Source: Nitrospinales bacterium (GTDB taxonomy: Bacteria > Nitrospinota > Nitrospinia > Nitrospinales > VA-1). From it: 64,000 nt of DNA. The number at the start of each line of letters is the position of its first letter. The first letter of the stretch is position 1. The notes under the pieces were generated by a model that did no database searches, was not told the origin of the DNA, and saw only the letters and a program-made list of their open reading frames with translations. The position numbers and the translations under genes were made by a program. Of this stretch, positions 28,864 through 42,551 are shown one piece after another. The stretch covers positions 2,400,001 to 2,464,000 of the forward strand of contig OZ253496.1 in the NCBI GenBank assembly GCA_965262115.1, written 5' to 3'.

Positions 28864-30597
28864 TTATGCTCTAAAGGATTTTTGAGCAAGGGCAATATGA
28901 TCCGCATTATGGATTTCCAGCCAGCCTTTGTGGATCTCCATATAGTGGACGGCGAAACCCCGATCAATCATTTCCTGAATGAGGTCGGTGAAATTCAGTT
29001 TGGAGATATCCTCTGATTCCTGAAAGCGGCCGGTAAAATTTTTGAGCACATCGTTATAGGTTTCGAGAAACTGCTCGGCGCCGGTTTTGCTGAATCGGGC
29101 AAGACCTATGAACTCGTGGGTCGCGGTTTCCGGGTTTATTTTGTTGCCAATCTTTGCCACTGTATTTTCGCTGGTGAAACGGATTTCCCGACGCGTTGGC
29201 TTGTAGTGGTTCTTGGTGATAATGAAGTCGAGAATGTTTCCCTCTTCCGGCTGGTGATACTGGGTTGAATTGTCGGCGACGAGAACAATATCTTCCTTGC
29301 ACTCTGTCAGCTTGCTGAGAATCTGGTCCTCCATGAGGATGTCGGAATACAGCATGATGAATCCATTGGCCATTTTTTCCTTCGCAACCACCAGTGAGTT
29401 GAGCATGGACCCTTTCTGGTAGTCGGGGTTCTCTAGAATATTGATGCCCTCTGCATACAGGTTGTCCTTGCCATACCCTGCGATGAGTGTAATATCTGCA
29501 AGATTGGCGTTGCTCAGGGCTTGAATCTGATGGTCGAGAAGGGTCTTGCCGCAAATTTCGAGCATGGCCTTGGGCTTACCGTTCAAAACTTCCTTGAAAA
29601 CATGATCCTCCCCGGCGGCAGGAATGATCACCGGAATATTAGTGGTCTGTTCATCCTGCTGGTCTTTTTCCTTAACATCCAGAAACCCGACGGTTTTAAA
29701 AATTTCCCGGACGGGTGTGCATAAAGGATTGGCCTCCAGAGATCTCTGGTTGCGAAGTAGAGTCTTTGCAGTTTCCGTCATCGCCTGGTAGGCGCTGCGC
29801 AAAAGGTGATTGGCATAAATAACGATGCTGAATCCAGCGGCGCTCAGTTTGTCCTCGGTGATTCGGTTATAAGTGGTGGGCACGCACACCAGCGGTTTGT
29901 TCAATTTTAGATTTTTTAAAATAACCTGGTACTTTTTGGCAAACTCCAGGATTTCATCCGGGCTTTTGGACTTGGAGTGGATCATGATTCCATCGACCCC
30001 GGCTTCCAGGTATTTTGTGGCCCTGTTGAGTGCGTCTTCCATGGGTTTTCCGGATATGAGGCTTTCAATCCGGGCGATAATCATAAACTCACTGCTTTTC
30101 TGAACACTTTTTCCCCGCCGGATTTTCTGGGCGAAGACTTCCGGTTCTTGCAGGTTTTGCTGGACTCCAGCCTCCAGGCTATTGCGCTTGGGAAAAACCT
30201 TATCTTCTATAATCACCGCAGACACACCTGCCCGCTCAAGTTTGGAGACGGTGTATTCGAAGGTGTTCGCGTCCCCTCCCGTATCGCCGTCAACGATCAT
30301 GGGTTTATCGGTCACAGCGAGAATTTCGTTGATGGTGTGTAGTCTGGAGTCAAAGGTGACGACCTCGATATCGGGGTGGCCTTTCGAGGCCGAGTCGGTG
30401 AGACTGCTTTCCCAGATGGCATCGAATTGGCGGACAACGGTTTGTCCATCCGAATCTCCAGTCACTTCAACCGAATTGGCGATGATGCCGCTCAACCCAT
30501 TATGAGCTTCAAGCACCCGCACTGTTTTTCCTTCTTCCAGCAGGGCCTTGAGTTTTCCCCGGCGATGTTCGGGAAGAATAGTGTTAAGAAGGGTCAT
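28864..30597 (-). CDS. pepM: Phosphoenolpyruvate mutase fused to a C-terminal nucleotidyltransferase domain
   Basis: EAHNGLSG, DGDTGG, EDKVFPKRNS (PepM EDKx5NS motif); C-terminal IPAAG...KPKAML...YSDI...WLEI. Confidence 0.9.
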   Translation of the reverse strand: MTLLNTILPEHRRGKLKALLEEGKTVRVLEAHNGLSGIIANSVEVTGDSDGQTVVRQFDAIWESSLTDSASKGHPDIEVVTFDSRLHTINEILAVTDKPMIVDGDTGGDANTFEYTVSKLERAGVSAVIIEDKVFPKRNSLEAGVQQNLQEPEVFAQKIRRGKSVQKSSEFMIIARIESLISGKPMEDALNRATKYLEAGVDGIMIHSKSKSPDEILEFAKKYQVILKNLKLNKPLVCVPTTYNRITEDKLSAAGFSIVIYANHLLRSAYQAMTETAKTLLRNQRSLEANPLCTPVREIFKTVGFLDVKEKDQQDEQTTNIPVIIPAAGEDHVFKEVLNGKPKAMLEICGKTLLDHQIQALSNANLADITLIAGYGKDNLYAEGINILENPDYQKGSMLNSLVVAKEKMANGFIMLYSDILMEDQILSKLTECKEDIVLVADNSTQYHQPEEGNILDFIITKNHYKPTRREIRFTSENTVAKIGNKINPETATHEFIGLARFSKTGAEQFLETYNDVLKNFTGRFQESEDISKLNFTDLIQEMIDRGFAVHYMEIHKGWLEIHNADHIALAQKSFRA

Positions 30598-30878
30598 GAC
30601 TGGGCTCCAGCGATTTTATCGGCCTCAATTTTTTCTCGTATCCAGTCAGCCACATAGATATTGTCGAGATCAAATTTTTTCAGCGTGTTTAAAATAACGA
30701 TCACGTGTTCTTCGTCCGGAAGATTTTTGTCCAGAATAATGAGGTCCTCGCCTTTGAGTTTGCAGTAGCCGCCTTGTATGGCAAACTCCTGATCGTTGAG
30801 GTTGGAGATTTCAATTTTTATGGATAATTTTTCTGCGGCTTCCTTGAGGTCCTCAATCCGGCTCTCAATGTTTTGCAT
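30594..30878 (-). CDS. Hypothetical protein
   Basis: GGYCKLKGEDLIILDK; overlaps the pepM start by 4 nt. Confidence 0.75.
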   Translation of the reverse strand: MQNIESRIEDLKEAAEKLSIKIEISNLNDQEFAIQGGYCKLKGEDLIILDKNLPDEEHVIVILNTLKKFDLDNIYVADWIREKIEADKIAGAQS

Positions 30879-30892
30879 AGTAGAAGATGTTT

Positions 30893-32278
30893 TCAGGTAA
30901 TGATTCGCATAATATCATTATAAAACGCGAACACCATGAGGCTGAGCAACATGAATATCCCAACTTGCTGTGCCCGTTCCCGGTTCCTTTCACTGACAGG
31001 TTTGCCCTTGAGAATCTCTATCAGGAAAAAGAAAATATGGCCGCCATCCAGAACCGGAATCGGCAACAGGTTGAGCAGCCCCAGGTTGATGCTCAAAAGC
31101 GCGGTCAACCGAACCAGCTCATTAAGGCCTTGTTCGGTATATTCCCCGTAAATTTGAAAAATCAGGATGGGGCCGCCGATGGAGTCTGCGGGGATGGAGC
31201 CTACAATCATTTTTTTGATGCTGACAGCGATCAGATAAATCAGCCGCCTTGTTTCATCAATGGCTCTTTTAAGAGCTCCGAAAACGCCGTATTTTTCCGT
31301 TGCCATTTCTCCGGCCATGCCGATGCCGAGCAGACCCACTTCTGCACTTTTGCCTTCAAGGTCTTTGACAACCTTAGGCTCGGGTGTCAGTGTGGTTACG
31401 ATTTCTGTTCCGTTTCTGAGGACTCTGAAGGTCAGTTCTTGGCCGGGCTTGTCGACGGCCGCTGTCTTCAGGTCTCCCCAGCCAAAAATAATAGTATTGT
31501 CCACCGAAACCAGAATGTCGCCTTCTTGAATTCCAGCCCGGTCAGCCGGGGAGCCTTCTTTAACATAAAAAACATTTCGTACCAGTGGTGTGATTCCGAT
31601 CAGCCCAACGTTTTCTTTGTCACCAAAAAGATCGCTGATTTCCTCGGAGATGGGGGTGATGGGGACATGGGCGATGCTTCCGGAGCTTCTTTCCACCTGG
31701 AAATCCAAGGAGCGGCCTGGAGACTTATGCACGATTTTTTGCAGTTGTTCCCAATAAAGTATTTTTTCATCGCCAATGGCTAAAATGCGGTCGCCGGTTT
31801 GAAGCCCCGCAACCAGTGCCGGAGACTCATCCTTAACCGTGCCAACAACAGGAGCCAATGCAGGAACCCCTACCAGATAGACGCAATAATAAATGGCAAT
31901 GGCAAAAAGGATATTGAAGAGCGGACCCGCGAAGGCAATGGCCAGCCGGTCCAGAACCGGAGCTGCCGCAAAGGACCCCTGTTCGTCTGTGGTTTCTTCT
32001 CCGACTTCTTCCCCTTTCATTTTTACGTAGCCGCCAAGGGGAATCCAGGCGAGGAGGTATTCGGTGCCTCCGCGTGTGAAGCTCACAATTTTAGGCCCAA
32101 AACCGAGGGAAAACTTTTCCACCACGACGCCCACCTTCCGGGCAACGAGAAAATGCCCAAGTTCATGGACGAAGATGAGAGCGGCCAGGCCACCCAGAAA
32201 AGCCAGCATTTTGATCCCGAAACTGAGGATTGCATCTAAAGAAAATATTGAAAGTTCAAACATGAGATTTAATCCCAC
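30893..32278 (-). CDS. rseP: RIP metalloprotease RseP (two PDZ domains)
   Basis: HELGH, PLGGYVKM, AGPLFN, NLLPIPVLDGG. Confidence 0.95.
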   Translation of the reverse strand: MGLNLMFELSIFSLDAILSFGIKMLAFLGGLAALIFVHELGHFLVARKVGVVVEKFSLGFGPKIVSFTRGGTEYLLAWIPLGGYVKMKGEEVGEETTDEQGSFAAAPVLDRLAIAFAGPLFNILFAIAIYYCVYLVGVPALAPVVGTVKDESPALVAGLQTGDRILAIGDEKILYWEQLQKIVHKSPGRSLDFQVERSSGSIAHVPITPISEEISDLFGDKENVGLIGITPLVRNVFYVKEGSPADRAGIQEGDILVSVDNTIIFGWGDLKTAAVDKPGQELTFRVLRNGTEIVTTLTPEPKVVKDLEGKSAEVGLLGIGMAGEMATEKYGVFGALKRAIDETRRLIYLIAVSIKKMIVGSIPADSIGGPILIFQIYGEYTEQGLNELVRLTALLSINLGLLNLLPIPVLDGGHIFFFLIEILKGKPVSERNRERAQQVGIFMLLSLMVFAFYNDIMRIIT

Positions 32279-32363
32279 CAGTGGGTTTTATTCCCCGTGG
32301 CTTGCCACGGCTTTTAAAATAACTCTTCATTTAGGATACCCCGTCTGCTTGCAACGGGGTCGT

Positions 32364-33044
32364 TCATTGAGTTTGTGTGTAATCCAAAATCTCCACGCCG
32401 GGTGGAGTCTTGAGTTGGAATTGTTCCTCCGGGATTTCCCGGTTAACCCGAATACGGGTGAAGCGAATTTCTGTTTTGTTTCCTAATTTATCATACACGG
32501 TCGATCCGGTGATTTGGAAGTTTTTCTTATCAGCTTGAAGGACCAGTCTTGCCAGACCCTGCTCCTCGTTTTTTGGGACAAGGGTGACAATAATATTCTG
32601 GTTTTCCTCATTCACACTTTCAACAATAAAGGTCTGGGTCAGCTTTCCTTTTCCTGCCAGAAAAAGCGCCGGTGTGTTGGAAGAGTAGATGCTTTCAACC
32701 GGTACCTTGGTGGCTTGCTCCTCGTCAGGGACATAAAGCCAAAGGGTTTTCTCATTGCTGATTAGAATTTGTGTATCCGGAGCCCCATAGACCCATCTCA
32801 TCTTTCCGGGTTTCTTGATTTGCACCTTGCCTTTGAGGCTTTGGGTCTGGTCCATCATTTTGATGTAAGACTTCTGGGTGAAGTCGGCCTCAAAGGTTAA
32901 AACCTTTTCATACTGGTTTTGAATGGCATCCAGCGCTTTCTGTTCGGAGGTCTCCGCAAAGATGATTCCCGGTATTGTCAGGACGGTGATTAAAGCTAAA
33001 AGTTTTTGCAGGAGGTTCAAGGAAGTTTTCTCTCTATTTGTCAT
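32364..33044 (-). CDS. lolA: Outer-membrane lipoprotein carrier LolA family
   Basis: Signal peptide, FEADFTQ, KKPGKMRW, LWLY.P..EQ. Confidence 0.85.
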   Translation of the reverse strand: MTNREKTSLNLLQKLLALITVLTIPGIIFAETSEQKALDAIQNQYEKVLTFEADFTQKSYIKMMDQTQSLKGKVQIKKPGKMRWVYGAPDTQILISNEKTLWLYVPDEEQATKVPVESIYSSNTPALFLAGKGKLTQTFIVESVNEENQNIIVTLVPKNEEQGLARLVLQADKKNFQITGSTVYDKLGNKTEIRFTRIRVNREIPEEQFQLKTPPGVEILDYTQTQ

Positions 33045-33651
33045 GCAGGACCCTTCGGCCCGAAAGGGCCAGCCTGCCTTCAAGGATCAGTCGAATGGCT
33101 TCGGGGTAAATGATGTGTTCCTGTTCAAGAATCCTTTCAGAAAGGGAAGCCTCATCGTCATCATCAAAAATGGGAACCACCGCTTGCGAAATGATAGGGC
33201 CGCCATCCACTTCCTCGTTGACATAATGCACCGTGCATCCTGAAAACCGGGCGCCATGCTCCAAGACTCGTTTTTGCACGTTTAATCCGGGAAACGCTGG
33301 AAGCAACGAAGGGTGAATATTGATGATTCGACCTGAAAAAGTTTCGATAAAATGTTTGCCCAGAACCCGCATGTAGCCAGCGAGACAAATTAAATTAACG
33401 GATTTGGATTGGATTTGTTCTACCAGGCCCTGTTCGTAGCTGTTTCGGTCCGGAAAAGATTTAGGGTCCAGAAAAAGTCCGTCAAGACCATGCTTGCGTG
33501 CCCGTTCAAGAGCGTAGGTATCTTTCACATTACTAATCACTATGGCAATTTCGGCCTGCAGGATATTTTTTTCAATACTGTCGATGATGGCCTGCAGGTT
33601 AGAACCTCGTCCTGAAACCAAAACGGCGAGATTAAATTTGTCGGGTGCCAT
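33034..33651 (-). CDS. purN: Phosphoribosylglycinamide formyltransferase
   Basis: SGRGSNLQA, LAGYMR, NIHPSLLP, VDGGPII. Confidence 0.96.
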   Translation of the reverse strand: MAPDKFNLAVLVSGRGSNLQAIIDSIEKNILQAEIAIVISNVKDTYALERARKHGLDGLFLDPKSFPDRNSYEQGLVEQIQSKSVNLICLAGYMRVLGKHFIETFSGRIINIHPSLLPAFPGLNVQKRVLEHGARFSGCTVHYVNEEVDGGPIISQAVVPIFDDDDEASLSERILEQEHIIYPEAIRLILEGRLALSGRRVLHDK

Positions 33652-33836
33652 TTAAAGGGATTGTAAAGGTTTGTTGGGGACGGGTGCTAATACCCTTGAT
33701 CTTATCATTAAATGGTGTTTTTAATCAATTGCTCAGACGGCTTTCCTTCAGGCATGGAGTAGTTCGGCAGCTTAAACTGGCGGGAGCCAAAGAATAAAGG
33801 AGGTTCGGCGAAAAAGTTTGCCCTCCGGCGGCGGAG

Positions 33837-36044
33837 TCAGTTTTTCTGAAGCAGGTTTTCCTGGATGTTTTGAAGAAGGCCTATATTCTGGGTGTGTCCT
33901 GATCTGTAGGCTTTGACGTGCCCCCGTATGGGTTTTCCCAGCAAATAAAAATCCCCGAGTATATCCAGAATTTTATGCCGGGGGAACTCATCTTTAAAGC
34001 GGAGTTTGGTGTTCAAGACTTTTTTGTCGCCAAGCAATATAAAGTTGTCAAGCTTGCCTCCAGACGCATAACCCATTTTGGTCAATTGCGCCACCTCTTC
34101 CATGAAACCGAAGGTTCTTGCCGGGGCAATTTCCTTTTTAAAACTTTCACCTCCTTTGAACTCATAAGTGTAGTCCTGAATGCCAATCGGTTCTGGATAT
34201 TCCATGTGGTAACTGACGCTAAAGCTATCGCTGGGTTCGATGGAAATATACGGCTCACCTTGCTCCTTGTTGCCAAAAGTGTAGTTTTTATCGATCACGA
34301 TTTCTTCATAAAAATCATCTTGGTCTTCGAACTCTCCATCCTCTATCAGGTCACAAAAATCTTTTGCGGAACCATCCATCACCGGTGCTTCATCGCCGAT
34401 TTTAATGAGCAGGTTGGTGATCCTGTACATGTGAAGAGCCGCCATAATATGTTCAATGGTTCCGACCGAGACCCTGTCTTTACGTAAGCGGGTGGCATAA
34501 TCTGTGGACTGGACATTTTCCAGCCGGGCGGAAATAGTTTTGCCGGTGGAAATATCCCCAAATATGATTCCGCTTCCCGGAGGCATGGGTTGCAGAATCA
34601 ATCCTGTTTTGATACCCGAATGCAAACCGCTTCCGCACAACACCACACTGCGCTTGAGGGTGCGCTGTTGGTGGCGGTATCCATTATTGATTTCTTCTGG
34701 GTCTGGTATTTCAATGGAGTGGAGCGCAATTTTTTCTTTAAGTTGTTTTTTTTCTGTGTTCAGAGATTTGCAGGTTTTTTCGATGTCCCAGTTGTTGCGC
34801 TTAAGGTGGTGAATGATGAAATGCTTTTCCCAAATCAGTTCTGCTTCCTGAAGAGACCCGGCCTGATCAATATCGTTGATTTCTATTTTGGGTTGCCAGA
34901 TTTCCGAAGGCAGACCCTGGGCGGTTATTTTTTTCTGGTTAGCGCCGGTAAGAATCAATTTATTCAGCACAGATTTCAACTCTTTCACATTTTCGGGCCA
35001 AGTATAACGGCATAGAGCGGCCAGGGCGTCTTCACCTATTTCGGGGACGGACGTGTTCGGTGTTTGCCGGATTTCATCCAGATAATCTTTTGCCATAGCG
35101 GGGATACTCACGGCATAGTTGCGCAAAGGCGGAACAAATAAAGTGGAGTCTTTGAACGCGTCCAGTAATGCAGGATGAAACTGGCCTTTTGCGGACAGGG
35201 CTGCCAAATCTTGAGCGGATGACGCAAAAATCCGGATGGGTATCAATCCTAAATGGGAGTCAGCCGATTGCGAACCGTTAGAATGCAGGGCTTCCGCGAG
35301 TTTTTCCTGCAGGCCTTTGCTCAATGATTCAATATTGCTGAGATAGATTACTTTTTCCTCGCCAGCCTGGTTGGAAGCACGGGTATTTTTTCGGGGTCGC
35401 TTAAAAAGTTGGGAGTGAATGGCCCGTGCCTGGCGAAACGAGCAATTTATTTTAACGAAGGAACGGTCGCTTTTACTGCTCTGCCCATGGATGGCATGGG
35501 CGATGAACTCTTTACCGGTTCCATTTTCGCCACGCACTAAAACCGGTTTCATATGCCGCGAAAACTCTTTCACCGCCTTTTTCACTTCCACCATGGATTC
35601 AAAACAAAGAGGGAGTTCCCCCCTGTAGGAAGGCGTCAGTTTTTCCTCAGCCTTGAATTTAGAGCGTTTGTTGCCCAACACTTCTGCAATCGATTGGGTG
35701 ATCCGGTCCAGGGAAAAAGGTTTTTCTATAAAGTCCTGAGCCCCCAGTTTGGTTGCCTTGACCGCCGTGTCAATGGTTCCGTGGCCGGACATAATCAAGA
35801 CTTCAATTTCAGGATTATAAGATTTTACCGTTTTTAAAACCTCAATTCCGTCCATTCCCGGTAGCCAGATATCCAGTAAAACCAGGTCGGGGGGGTCTTT
35901 TTGGATAATTTCCAATGCTTCAAGGCCATCCCCTGTCTCAGCGACTTCATAACCTTCATCAGCGAGTATTCCAGTCAAGGAACTGACAATATTTTTTTCG
36001 TCATCGACGATGAGAATACGTGCTTTAGGCAAAAGGGTCACCAT
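33837..36044 (-). CDS. lpxC: Fusion: NtrC/NtrX-type receiver + degenerate sigma-54 AAA+ domain + UDP-3-O-acyl-GlcNAc deacetylase
   Basis: ILIVDDE/LLDIWLP/FIEKPF receiver; GENGTGKE; WPENVKEL; then QRTLKRSV..GSGLHSG, TIEHIMAAL, PVMDGSA, APARTFGF, HKILDILGD, GHTQN. Confidence 0.9.
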   Translation of the reverse strand: MVTLLPKARILIVDDEKNIVSSLTGILADEGYEVAETGDGLEALEIIQKDPPDLVLLDIWLPGMDGIEVLKTVKSYNPEIEVLIMSGHGTIDTAVKATKLGAQDFIEKPFSLDRITQSIAEVLGNKRSKFKAEEKLTPSYRGELPLCFESMVEVKKAVKEFSRHMKPVLVRGENGTGKEFIAHAIHGQSSKSDRSFVKINCSFRQARAIHSQLFKRPRKNTRASNQAGEEKVIYLSNIESLSKGLQEKLAEALHSNGSQSADSHLGLIPIRIFASSAQDLAALSAKGQFHPALLDAFKDSTLFVPPLRNYAVSIPAMAKDYLDEIRQTPNTSVPEIGEDALAALCRYTWPENVKELKSVLNKLILTGANQKKITAQGLPSEIWQPKIEINDIDQAGSLQEAELIWEKHFIIHHLKRNNWDIEKTCKSLNTEKKQLKEKIALHSIEIPDPEEINNGYRHQQRTLKRSVVLCGSGLHSGIKTGLILQPMPPGSGIIFGDISTGKTISARLENVQSTDYATRLRKDRVSVGTIEHIMAALHMYRITNLLIKIGDEAPVMDGSAKDFCDLIEDGEFEDQDDFYEEIVIDKNYTFGNKEQGEPYISIEPSDSFSVSYHMEYPEPIGIQDYTYEFKGGESFKKEIAPARTFGFMEEVAQLTKMGYASGGKLDNFILLGDKKVLNTKLRFKDEFPRHKILDILGDFYLLGKPIRGHVKAYRSGHTQNIGLLQNIQENLLQKN

Positions 36045-36058
36045 TCGTGATGCAGGTC

Positions 36059-36703
36059 TCAGGTCGCGGGTGTGGCAATGCCTGGCCGTGAATATTCGAG
36101 GTAATAAATTTTATGACCCGCATTGATAAAGTTTTTTTCATATTTGGTTTTGGGCAAGTCTGCGCGGCTCTCAAGAAAGCCTGACCCCGGGCCCTGATTT
36201 TGAAACTGGGGTTCAGAGTTAAAGGTTTCCAGCATTTCAATGGCGTAGGGTTCGCTATCGGTCGCCAGGTAAACTTGCCCCTCGGGAGCTAATTTTTGCC
36301 CAATTAGTTTAACAAAATCGGGCTTGATCAACCTTCTTTTAATATGCCTTTTTTTTGGCCAGGGGTCGGGGAAGTTGATATACGCGGTTTCCAACTCCCC
36401 ATTCTTGAACAAGTGAGGAATTTTAAAACGCACATCTCCATAGGCTACCCGGATATTTTCCAACTGCAGTTTTTTTATCCGCGTCATTAATTTCCGAATT
36501 CCTTTATGGTAGAAATCCATGCCGATGAAATTGGTCCGGGGTTCCTGGGCGGCCATTTCAATAAGGAAATTTCCCATTCCAAAGCCGATCTCCAGTTTTA
36601 GTGGTTGACAGTTCCCGAATTGGGCTTGCCAATTGGGCCACTCCTCAATATCAAGGAAATAAGAATCTTCTTCTTTAATTTTAGCAAAAGATATAAGGGC
36701 CAT
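36059..36703 (-). CDS. trmB: tRNA (guanine-N7)-methyltransferase
   Basis: LEIGFGMG, NFPDPWPKKRH, ATD, TKYE. Confidence 0.94.
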   Translation of the reverse strand: MALISFAKIKEEDSYFLDIEEWPNWQAQFGNCQPLKLEIGFGMGNFLIEMAAQEPRTNFIGMDFYHKGIRKLMTRIKKLQLENIRVAYGDVRFKIPHLFKNGELETAYINFPDPWPKKRHIKRRLIKPDFVKLIGQKLAPEGQVYLATDSEPYAIEMLETFNSEPQFQNQGPGSGFLESRADLPKTKYEKNFINAGHKIYYLEYSRPGIATPAT

Positions 36704-37194
36704 TAAGTAGATGAAGAGTCGCCAGGGTTGTCATGAATGGTGATCACTTCTAATACTTCAAATTCCATTTTACCGTCAGGCAGTGAAACGCTGATTTCAT
36801 CGCCTTCCTGTTTACCGACCATGGCTCTCCCCACTGGTGAGGCTGTGGAAATTTTCCCCTCATCAGGGTTGACTTCCTCCGGGAAAACCAAATGGTACTG
36901 GGTCTCTTTACCGCTATCCATATCTTTCAATTTCAAAGTGCTTCCAAGGCCGGAACGGTCTTTCGGAATCTGGTTGACGTTGATGGCCATGATGTCACTG
37001 ATGCGTTTTTGTAAAAGGGAAATGCGGGATTCCAAAAACATCTGTCGTTCCTTCGCCGCTTTAAATTCCGCATTTTCGCTCAGGTCTCCGTGTTCCCGAG
37101 CTGTTAAAATGGCTTTGGGAATGTCCACCTGAAGTTCTCTTTGTGATTCTTCTAAATCCTTGTCCAACTTGTCCAAAATGGGAAGCCGCTTCAT
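36703..37194 (-). CDS. greA: Transcription elongation factor GreA
   Basis: AREHGDLSENAEF, ISTASPVGRA. Confidence 0.92.
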   Translation of the reverse strand: MKRLPILDKLDKDLEESQRELQVDIPKAILTAREHGDLSENAEFKAAKERQMFLESRISLLQKRISDIMAINVNQIPKDRSGLGSTLKLKDMDSGKETQYHLVFPEEVNPDEGKISTASPVGRAMVGKQEGDEISVSLPDGKMEFEVLEVITIHDNPGDSSST

Positions 37195-41436: not shown

Positions 41437-42153
41437 TTACTTTTTGTTCTTCTGTTTCCAAAGGATGAGCCAGTGTTGCAGGAGTTTGATCGGTTGTGTG
41501 CCGCGAAATTTTCGGCGTTTGATTTTCGGGGTCTGGTCGTGTTGTAATTTTGCAATGACTGTGGCGCCGACCGCTTCTTCCAGCACCACACCGCGTTGAG
41601 CGTGTTCGAGTTTTTTTGATTCGCAGACGCCGCGAAACGCCACCACCATGCGGCAGTCCAGAGGTCGGTCTTCATACACTTCGCAGGCACCTTCTTCACT
41701 GAGAAACGGGCAGGGTTGATTGATGACCAGTCTATGCCAGTCCACCTGATCGATATTTTTCCCGGATTTAAGAACTTCGTCCACTTTGTTGATGGTTCGC
41801 TGCGAACGTTCGAGCACGGCGTTGAGGTCAACCCCGTTTTCCTCGGCGTTTTTCAGGATGCCGTCCCATTCCAACTGGGTGCAGGAAACTCCGGTATGAC
41901 AACAGTGGGAACATCCGCGATGACATTGCAGGGGTGGCACGCCTTCGTTGAAAACTTTTTTCAGGTGTTGCCAGAACACCCGAAGCGGCGATATTTTTTC
42001 GTCGTGGGCTTTCCCTTCAGAAAACTCAACCAGGTAATCGTAAGCTTCCTGGATCTGATGTTCGGAAAACTTATGCTTTAAGAAACCGCTCAGTTCATCG
42101 GTATTGGTCATACCGTAGATGAACATTCCATTTTTATCAGTTTGGAGAGACAC
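41437..42153 (-). CDS. YkgJ-family cysteine-cluster protein
   Basis: CHRGCSHCC, CPFL...C.VYEDRPLDCR. Confidence 0.82.
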   Translation of the reverse strand: MSLQTDKNGMFIYGMTNTDELSGFLKHKFSEHQIQEAYDYLVEFSEGKAHDEKISPLRVFWQHLKKVFNEGVPPLQCHRGCSHCCHTGVSCTQLEWDGILKNAEENGVDLNAVLERSQRTINKVDEVLKSGKNIDQVDWHRLVINQPCPFLSEEGACEVYEDRPLDCRMVVAFRGVCESKKLEHAQRGVVLEEAVGATVIAKLQHDQTPKIKRRKFRGTQPIKLLQHWLILWKQKNKK

Positions 42154-42155
42154 AG

Positions 42156-42551
42156 CTAAAGAGGGGGTTTATTTTTTGCTACAAACTTCATCTGCAGTTC
42201 ATAGATGAGTTGTTCCAGCAGTTTGCCTTCTTCTTCGTTAAGGTTGCCCTGGGTTTTCTCTTTCAGCATGATCAGCATGTCAATAGTTTGCTGCACGGCG
42301 GGCAGGTTGGTTTCGGTTTTCCCGGTTTCAGGGTCAGCGATGTCGCCGAGGTGATAAAAGGCCGATGAAGTCAGTGACATGATAAAAGTGGAAAAATCGA
42401 TCTTGAAGGGTTGCTGAGCTTGCCCCTGCGAAGGCTGGCCTTGCTGGGCCTCTGTCTTGGAATCCTGATCTAGCGCTTCGTCTTCGGAAAGTTGTGAAGA
42501 ACGGCTGTCTTTGAATACGAATCCTTCTCCTTCAATTTCTTCATCACTCAT
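42156..42551 (-). CDS. DUF1844 family protein
   Basis: IDFSTFIMSL...HLG...TIDML.ML.EKT.GNL. Confidence 0.85.
   Translation of the reverse strand: MSDEEIEGEGFVFKDSRSSQLSEDEALDQDSKTEAQQGQPSQGQAQQPFKIDFSTFIMSLTSSAFYHLGDIADPETGKTETNLPAVQQTIDMLIMLKEKTQGNLNEEEGKLLEQLIYELQMKFVAKNKPPL

Follow-up and report, generated by a model that had tools for sequence, protein, structure and literature searches.

LpxC, the deacetylase of lipid A synthesis, is encoded in a Nitrospinales bacterium as the C-terminal part of an NtrX-like response regulator. The gene lies in a stretch of 64,000 nucleotides (hereafter, the window), and the fusion that it represents is real, ancient and widespread. What stays constant in the fusion is the pairing of receiver and enzyme, and the receiver evolves as slowly as LpxC. 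Taken with a retained NtrY kinase, these features suggest that the deacetylase is probably switched directly by phosphorylation of a receiver predicted to dock on it.

The Fusion Gene and Its Integrity

The gene occupies positions 33837..36044 of the minus strand, and as judged by its translation and by Pfam it encodes a receiver, a dead AAA+ domain, a lid, a decayed helix-turn-helix (HTH) and LpxC within 735 residues. No internal stop was found, so that the single uninterrupted reading frame described in the initial annotation is borne out. Nor does a stop and restart separate the domains in relatives or in independent data. Specifically, in each of the best 120 homologues a single chain contains both receiver and LpxC, and a contig of another study that covers 33751-35393, and thereby crosses the HTH-LpxC junction, differs at 90 letters without any indel in the reading frame. 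Assembly error and read-through are ruled out by these two observations. Note that one of the four sequencing runs compared carries the identical stretch in one contig, and is possibly the source. A conserved Met restart before LpxC was also rejected, because a Met is located within 8 residues of the LpxC start in 10/286 fusions versus 36/46 stand-alone genes, as counted for Met with GTG and TTG starts outside the count. In a search for the sigma54 promoter pattern, 5 sites matched where 4.5 were expected, and no match was near the fusion gene.

The fused LpxC is the sole copy in this genome, which is a single contig of 93.9% completeness. A second, stand-alone lpxC was found neither here nor in the fusion genomes of other phyla, where the fusion was the only LpxC in 5/5.

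Distribution and Descent of the Fusion

Within the phylum Nitrospinota, 108 of 120 genomes gave an LpxC match, one apiece, and the stand-alone form was never shown. The matches lay in open frames of at least 460 aa in 104/108, and the remaining four frames continue past the ends of their contigs; fusions were called here by domain content for the 20 loci fetched and by frame length for the remainder. A scan of species genomes, covering 80 of 601 matching stretches, gave 28 fusions and 52 stand-alone LpxCs. Among these listed matches, 27/28 fusions were in one frame, and one (L093:3005-5670) was broken within the AAA+ part into two frames that overlap, by a frameshift or an assembly error. The scan fusions belonged to Thermoanaerobaculia, Holophagales, Terriglobia, Syntrophobacteraceae, Desulfomonile, Binatia, Myxococcia, Thermodesulfovibrionia and Nitrospinota, and the fusion phyla besides Nitrospinota include Acidobacteriota, Desulfobacterota, Binatota, Myxococcota and Nitrospirota. 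A further clade consists, by name, of Desulfofustis, Desulforhopalus and Desulfopila. In addition, the Hydrogenedentota locus L129:3416-5888 holds two tandem LpxC genes with open frames of 467 and 329 aa.

Shorter architectures were also observed. A profile search over 50%-identity representatives found many additional fusions, among them receiver-LpxC forms of 419-483 aa, for which Desulfopila sp. IMCC35008 and Desulforhopalus sp. 52FAK are, by name, cultured carriers, and a short form exists even in the window's own family (G040). The 302 unique fusions collected, a sample biased by the queries used and from which 7 fragments lacking a complete receiver had been removed, comprise 131 of the receiver-AAA-HTH-LpxC form, 31 without the HTH, 5 without the AAA+ and 135 without both, the last having only a 24-67 residue spacer between the receiver and LpxC.

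We then placed the fused enzymes in a quick maximum-likelihood tree built from 103 LpxC domains, where all 82 fused rows formed one clade (SH-aLRT 100) against 17 stand-alone LpxCs, the outgroup being a small sample. Four rows labelled as unfused fell inside this clade: P0173 begins within a receiver, P0271 is a 250-aa member of a fusion's cluster, and P0170 and P0209 look truncated. On this tree the AAA+ changed at least 9 times and the HTH at least 15 times, and several groups contain both long and short forms. In a tree of the regulator parts, 20 fused regulators grouped as a single clade (support 100) within the NtrX-like proteins. Since the long form descends from a receiver-AAA-HTH regulator, the changes in AAA+ and HTH are read as losses. 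We infer that an ntrX-like gene and lpxC fused once, in the distant past, and that transcriptional control of lpxC would thereby have become control at the enzyme.

Substitution rates were compared across 94 pairs (dS of 0.1-1.2) drawn from 19 genes of the genus. Mean dN was 0.043 for the receiver and 0.045 for LpxC, and 0.131, 0.105 and 0.104 for the AAA+, lid and HTH, respectively. A class-wide alignment of 23 sequences contained zero invariant columns between residues 112 and 459.

The Receiver and Its Likely Kinase

The NtrX-like receiver comprises residues 10-119 (35688..36017, minus strand; Pfam PF00072, 114 bits). Its translation contains DDE14-16 with D14 and D15, the phospho-acceptor D58 within the LLDIW motif (codon 35871-35873, minus strand), S86 and KP108-109, all of which had been recognised in the initial annotation, and the acidic pair, phospho-Asp, Ser/Thr and Lys of a phosphorylatable receiver are therefore all present in the sequence. 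Conservation in the fusions was 300/302 for D58, 300/302 for K108 and 302/302 for Ser or Thr at position 86. In P0142 and P0140, which belong to one small clade, Asn or Ser replaces Asp58, and these proteins are possible natural phosphorylation-independent forms. The receiver in genome G108 (L066:7651-8985) is short of three helix 1 residues, which could be an assembly error.

In the window, greA and a TrmB-like methyltransferase gene matching PF02390 are located upstream of the fusion (36059..37194, minus strand), and genes for a purN-like formyltransferase, lolA and an RseP-like M50/PDZ protease are located downstream (30893..33651, minus strand); the downstream genes, assigned by Pfam, are conserved neighbours in the relatives' loci. 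The absence of an adjacent kinase, remarked on earlier, was confirmed, and the likely cognate ntrY was identified by synteny with relatives about 220 kb away, outside the window (G000:C1:2654688-2657051, minus strand). This kinase has an NtrY_N-HAMP-PAS-HisKA-HATPase architecture with an HEIKN motif, and a DUF4390 gene lies upstream of it (G000:C1:2658314-2659006, minus strand). Inspection of the neighbourhood revealed no regulator beside ntrY in the window's genome. Elsewhere in the same genome, C1:613626 scored 379.7 on the NtrX model, higher than the fusion, but it scored better on AtoC/NtrC and fell outside the NtrX-like/fused group in the regulator tree, and it was rejected as an NtrX.

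Of the 20 loci fetched, 6/7 from deep families have the gene order DUF4390-ntrY-fusion, and in the 13 from the window's order the upstream place of DUF4390-ntrY is taken by the TrmB-like gene and greA. Among the scan matches listed, ntrY was directly upstream in 11/28 fusion loci. An NtrY-like kinase was present in 105/120 genomes of the phylum and in 55/57 of the good ones, and it was kept in all 20/20 tabulated same-contig cases in the window's order even though it is at least 90 kb from the fusion. In the genomes of other phyla without an adjacent kinase, NtrY was found in 4/5, and the remaining 1/5 gave no match with the query used. The DUF4390 gene upstream of the fusion's likely kinase resembles the arrangement of the PlrP-PlrS-PlrR subset of NtrY/NtrX in Bordetella, where the NtrY homologue is reported to have its phosphatase activity held back by a DUF4390 protein (PMC13001219).

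Several further features of these loci were recorded. The NtrY homologues of two Acidobacteriota loci (L172:1465-3306 and L173:1432-3273; Thermoanaerobaculia, Holophagales) have frames of 613 aa compared with 740-790 elsewhere; they are still behind DUF4390, and a domain may be missing. The NtrY match G005:C155:1386-2528 has two in-frame TGA stops, for which an assembly error could again be responsible. The window also encodes, at 28864-30597 (minus strand), a 577-aa fusion of PEP mutase (PF13714) and NTP-transferase (PF12804); it is conserved behind the rseP-like gene in several relatives and suggests phosphonate synthesis. A 94-aa ORF without a Pfam match (30594-30878, minus strand) overlaps the start of the PEP mutase gene. 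A DUF1844 protein (42156-42551, minus strand) adjoins a CxxCxxCC zinc/iron-chelating protein (41437-42153, minus strand), and both are near the fusion in L062 as well.

These data bear on whether the receiver signals at all. It might be a fixed structural partner that stabilises or serves as a dimer module, or it might drain phosphate from NtrY as a sink, with LpxC constitutive; docking by itself requires no phosphorylation, and the phospho-Asp is lost in 2/302 members. Judging from Asp-less receivers in general, however, a receiver with a purely structural role should lose the residues of the phosphorylation pocket, and the pocket is nearly invariant here. The kinase, moreover, has been kept after its separation from the fusion, and we regard a fixed or sink role as unlikely. 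NtrY presumably phosphorylates the receiver of the fusion.

The LpxC Domain and Its Surface Patch

The deacetylase domain extends over residues 460-728, for which Pfam gives bounds of 33861..34667 on the minus strand, slightly inside the interval of about 34675-33837 proposed initially. It passes both LpxC family models (PF03331, 273 bits with a cut-off of 27; TIGR00325, 233.7 with a cut-off of 187.25), and the translation contains EH531-532, HKILD690-694 and GH716-717, in agreement with the earlier reading that the Zn and catalytic motifs are retained. We take the EH, HKxxD and C-terminal His to be the Zn ligands and catalytic residues of LpxC. E531, H532, H690, K691, D694 and H717 align with P. 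aeruginosa LpxC; the first five are each present in 302/302 fusions, and the catalytic set including H717 in 301-302/302. The fold was confirmed by Foldseek, with a target TM of up to 0.87, and of 0.96 for a short relative. Because the genome has no other LpxC, the fusion protein is likely to be an active deacetylase.

Comparison of 82 fused with 51 stand-alone LpxCs revealed a surface patch, V468/T480/G481/I483/L546/K548, common to the fused enzymes (G481, 99% vs. 0%; K548, 99% vs. 0%; V468, 85% vs. 4%). In the divergent Desulfocapsaceae-type set, V468, T480, G481 and I483 were each found in 120/121 members and K548 in 121/121, the patch overall in 118-121/121. P. aeruginosa LpxC has Arg, Tyr, Thr, Tyr and Glu at five of the patch sites, and Val at that of T480. 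Since the sites alternate with conserved hydrophobic residues, they would face outwards on the first beta-sheet and lie away from the catalytic residues. This surface is presumably where the receiver would dock, and a clade-specific patch can alternatively reflect shared ancestry or a homodimer surface. Desulfocapsaceae-type fusions (P0159, P0487, P0528 and relatives) also have GLLSG for GLHSG, and their last catalytic His stands in SH rather than GH; they carry an insertion close to LpxC insert I as well, with the surface patch still present; the signature residues H538 and C564 are lost in this set.

We modelled the 431-aa short form P0276 with AlphaFold2 using 134 sequences, which gave a pLDDT of 89 and a pTM of 0.86 with a low-confidence linker, in a prediction run with no control. 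LpxC alone covers a TM of only about 0.61 of this model, and the gap from the pTM suggests that the receiver position is confidently predicted for this short relative. The full-length model of the window protein, made from the 23-sequence alignment, had a pTM of 0.44 and no confident domain arrangement. Mean-field DCA on 302 sequences (Neff 75) gave no clear signal of receiver-LpxC covariation.

The receiver could also set the location or lifetime of LpxC rather than its rate, with NtrY tethering the enzyme to the inner membrane or with phospho-state-dependent exposure to a protease. The receiver and NtrY are both conserved, as such a role would require, and a median of 45 residues follows HKxLD in fused LpxCs versus 63 in stand-alone ones, hence there is little room for a C-terminal E. 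coli-type degron. Searches gave no YejM-family match, and the sole LapB zinc-ribbon match was a RadA-like protein, a label read from its domains; an FtsH-type M41 peptidase is present. Localisation of LpxC to the membrane by Ght in Neisseria is described in a 2025 review (PMC12444477). However, simple tethering needs neither a fusion-specific patch nor a rigid predicted arrangement of receiver and LpxC, and we consider control of location or lifetime rather unlikely, in favour of direct control of the activity.

The Degenerate AAA+, Lid and HTH Domains

Between the receiver and LpxC, a sigma54-activator-type AAA+ domain was recognised weakly (residues 150-294; 35163..35597, minus strand; Sigma54_activat, 67.5 bits), followed by an AAA+ lid with an altered sensor II (residues 314-385; 34890..35105, minus strand; PF25601). 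The translation agrees with the first description of this region, in that Walker A (GENGTGKE) is present, YLSNI occupies the Walker B site and GAFTGA is absent; the arginine finger is lost as well. Across the 162 AAA+-bearing fusions, Walker A was found in 148, GAFTGA in 0, Walker B DE in 1, the arginine finger in 0 and sensor II in 10, and the corresponding numbers for 91 stand-alone relatives were 77, 38, 74, 66 and 67. The protein thus lacks the marks of a sigma54 enhancer-binding protein, namely GAFTGA together with Walker B DE, arginine finger and sensor II, and the loss of these motifs makes ATP hydrolysis and sigma54 activation very unlikely; nucleotide binding by the AAA+ of the fusions is possible, as judged from the sequences.

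A Fis-like HTH that the initial annotation had overlooked was detected at about residues 398-445 (34710..34853, minus strand) by a local profile, and it aligns to Brucella NtrX; Pfam HTH_8 matches the region in 2/5 of the relative fusions scanned. The fusions retain its core residues, with Phe replaced by an invariant Trp405. The recognition residues E-R-S..H-R, conserved at 71-91% in 34 stand-alone NtrX-like proteins, are at 30% or less in 20 fused representatives. We read the kept core with Trp405 as pointing to a role in packing or dimerisation.

Among known proteins, Brucella abortus NtrX (PDB 5m7n/5m7o/5m7p) was the best match in both structure and sequence, over fusion residues 8-439. 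The receiver-AAA+-HTH architecture is that of NtrX, with a degenerate HTH, and NtrY is paired with the fusion by synteny in relatives and unlinked here. Unlike NtrX, the fusion no longer has Walker B, an arginine finger or the residues that recognise DNA, and its output is an enzyme; NF051870 is its best-scoring NCBIfam family, though at 250.6 bits versus a cut-off of 600. The statement in the initial annotation that NtrX-type regulators lack GAFTGA holds for Brucella NtrX and fails as a general rule, since the motif is kept in 38 of the 91 stand-alone relatives. According to PMC6158489, Brucella NtrX and VpsR are both transcriptional regulators in spite of lacking GAFTGA, and in VpsR Walker B is altered as well.

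This precedent, together with the retention of the HTH core and Walker A in the long forms under purifying selection and the lack of another regulator beside ntrY in this genome, is what speaks for a bifunctional "trigger enzyme", whose NtrX part would bind DNA and regulate envelope genes while LpxC substrate or product feeds back. Feedback of the enzyme on transcription had also been offered in the initial annotation, and it fared poorly: the DNA-contacting residues are not conserved in the fusions, an HTH is undetected in 166/302 of them and was gained or lost repeatedly on the tree, and there is no HTH in P0039, a close relative with 76% identity across the protein. We regard a trigger enzyme as very improbable, and prefer that the AAA+ and HTH now serve, presumably, only as a spacer or dimer scaffold for the switch. 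Their dN/dS of about 0.11-0.16, including the lid, means that purifying selection persists, and this constraint with the Walker A count indicates that these domains do something, which the explanation we prefer covers only loosely.

Discussion

We propose that NtrY, a membrane kinase, would phosphorylate or dephosphorylate Asp58, that the DUF4390 protein would tune NtrY, and that the receiver, docked on the fusion-specific LpxC surface, would raise or lower deacetylase activity. Such a direct switch is probable in our judgement, and is favoured by the conserved phosphorylation pocket, the slow receiver dN, the retained NtrY, the surface patch, the docking model and the precedent of LpxC-binding partners. 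As to direction, we lean slightly towards phosphorylation activating LpxC. The initial suggestion that a regulator had been repurposed to control the enzyme has indirect support in this form, in that the receiver occurs in every architecture, is constrained like LpxC and is predicted to dock, and NtrY is kept.

Response regulators with enzymatic outputs include CheB, PleD/WspR and RpfG, and the fusion is like them in joining a receiver and a catalytic domain in one chain. Unlike theirs, its output is not a signalling enzyme but a committed, normally essential biosynthetic step.

According to the literature cited here, LpxC is controlled by LapB/FtsH and MurA (PMC11046580, PMC9995270) and by transcription (PMC12444477), and its activity is altered by the bound proteins MurA and LapB (PMC12444477, PMC11046580, PMC9995270). 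The fusion shares catalytic residues and fold with the LpxC under LapB-FtsH-YejM in E. coli and MurA in P. aeruginosa, and these systems are a precedent for control by a bound protein. In contrast to them, the fusion would carry its regulator in the same chain in an apparently phosphorylatable form, and it has a shorter C-terminus and the surface patch.

Two-component systems have been tied to lpxC before. In Rhodobacter sphaeroides, as reported in PMC7240162, NtrYX affects the lpxC transcript and the LPS level, and loss of NtrYX raised lpxC 8.8-fold, apparently indirectly. In Desulfovibrio, lpxC is given as the single target of the regulator DVU2934/Dde_3003, whose kinase is DVU2931/Dde_3000 (PMC3333781, PMC4045070), and loss of the kinase raises lpxC (the same sources and PMC4641369). 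The likeness drawn here between the fusion and DVU2934 is one of function; DVU2934 is, unlike the fusion, a separate sigma54 activator with GAFTGA that acts on the lpxC promoter, as described in PMC4641369.

In the literature searched, with supplements, older response-regulator surveys and subscription journals outside its scope, we found no description of a receiver-LpxC fusion and no response regulator with an LpxC output, and the fusion is apparently undescribed. In the 2025 review (PMC12444477), "fused" and "response regulator" have 0 occurrences, and section 10 places two-component control of LpxC only at transcription, within broad regulons.

The balance of lipid A outside Proteobacteria is largely an open question. 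If the proposed switch is true, it would be one more way in which LpxC is controlled, alongside proteolysis, the binding of partners and transcription, and would provide a new allosteric site or regulatory surface on LpxC, an antibiotic target. NtrY, whose signal is debated, would gain a single direct output in envelope synthesis. The receiver-LpxC form allows direct phospho-control to be tested on a single soluble protein for which an assay is established, and the natural deletion series would show a transcription factor becoming an enzyme switch.
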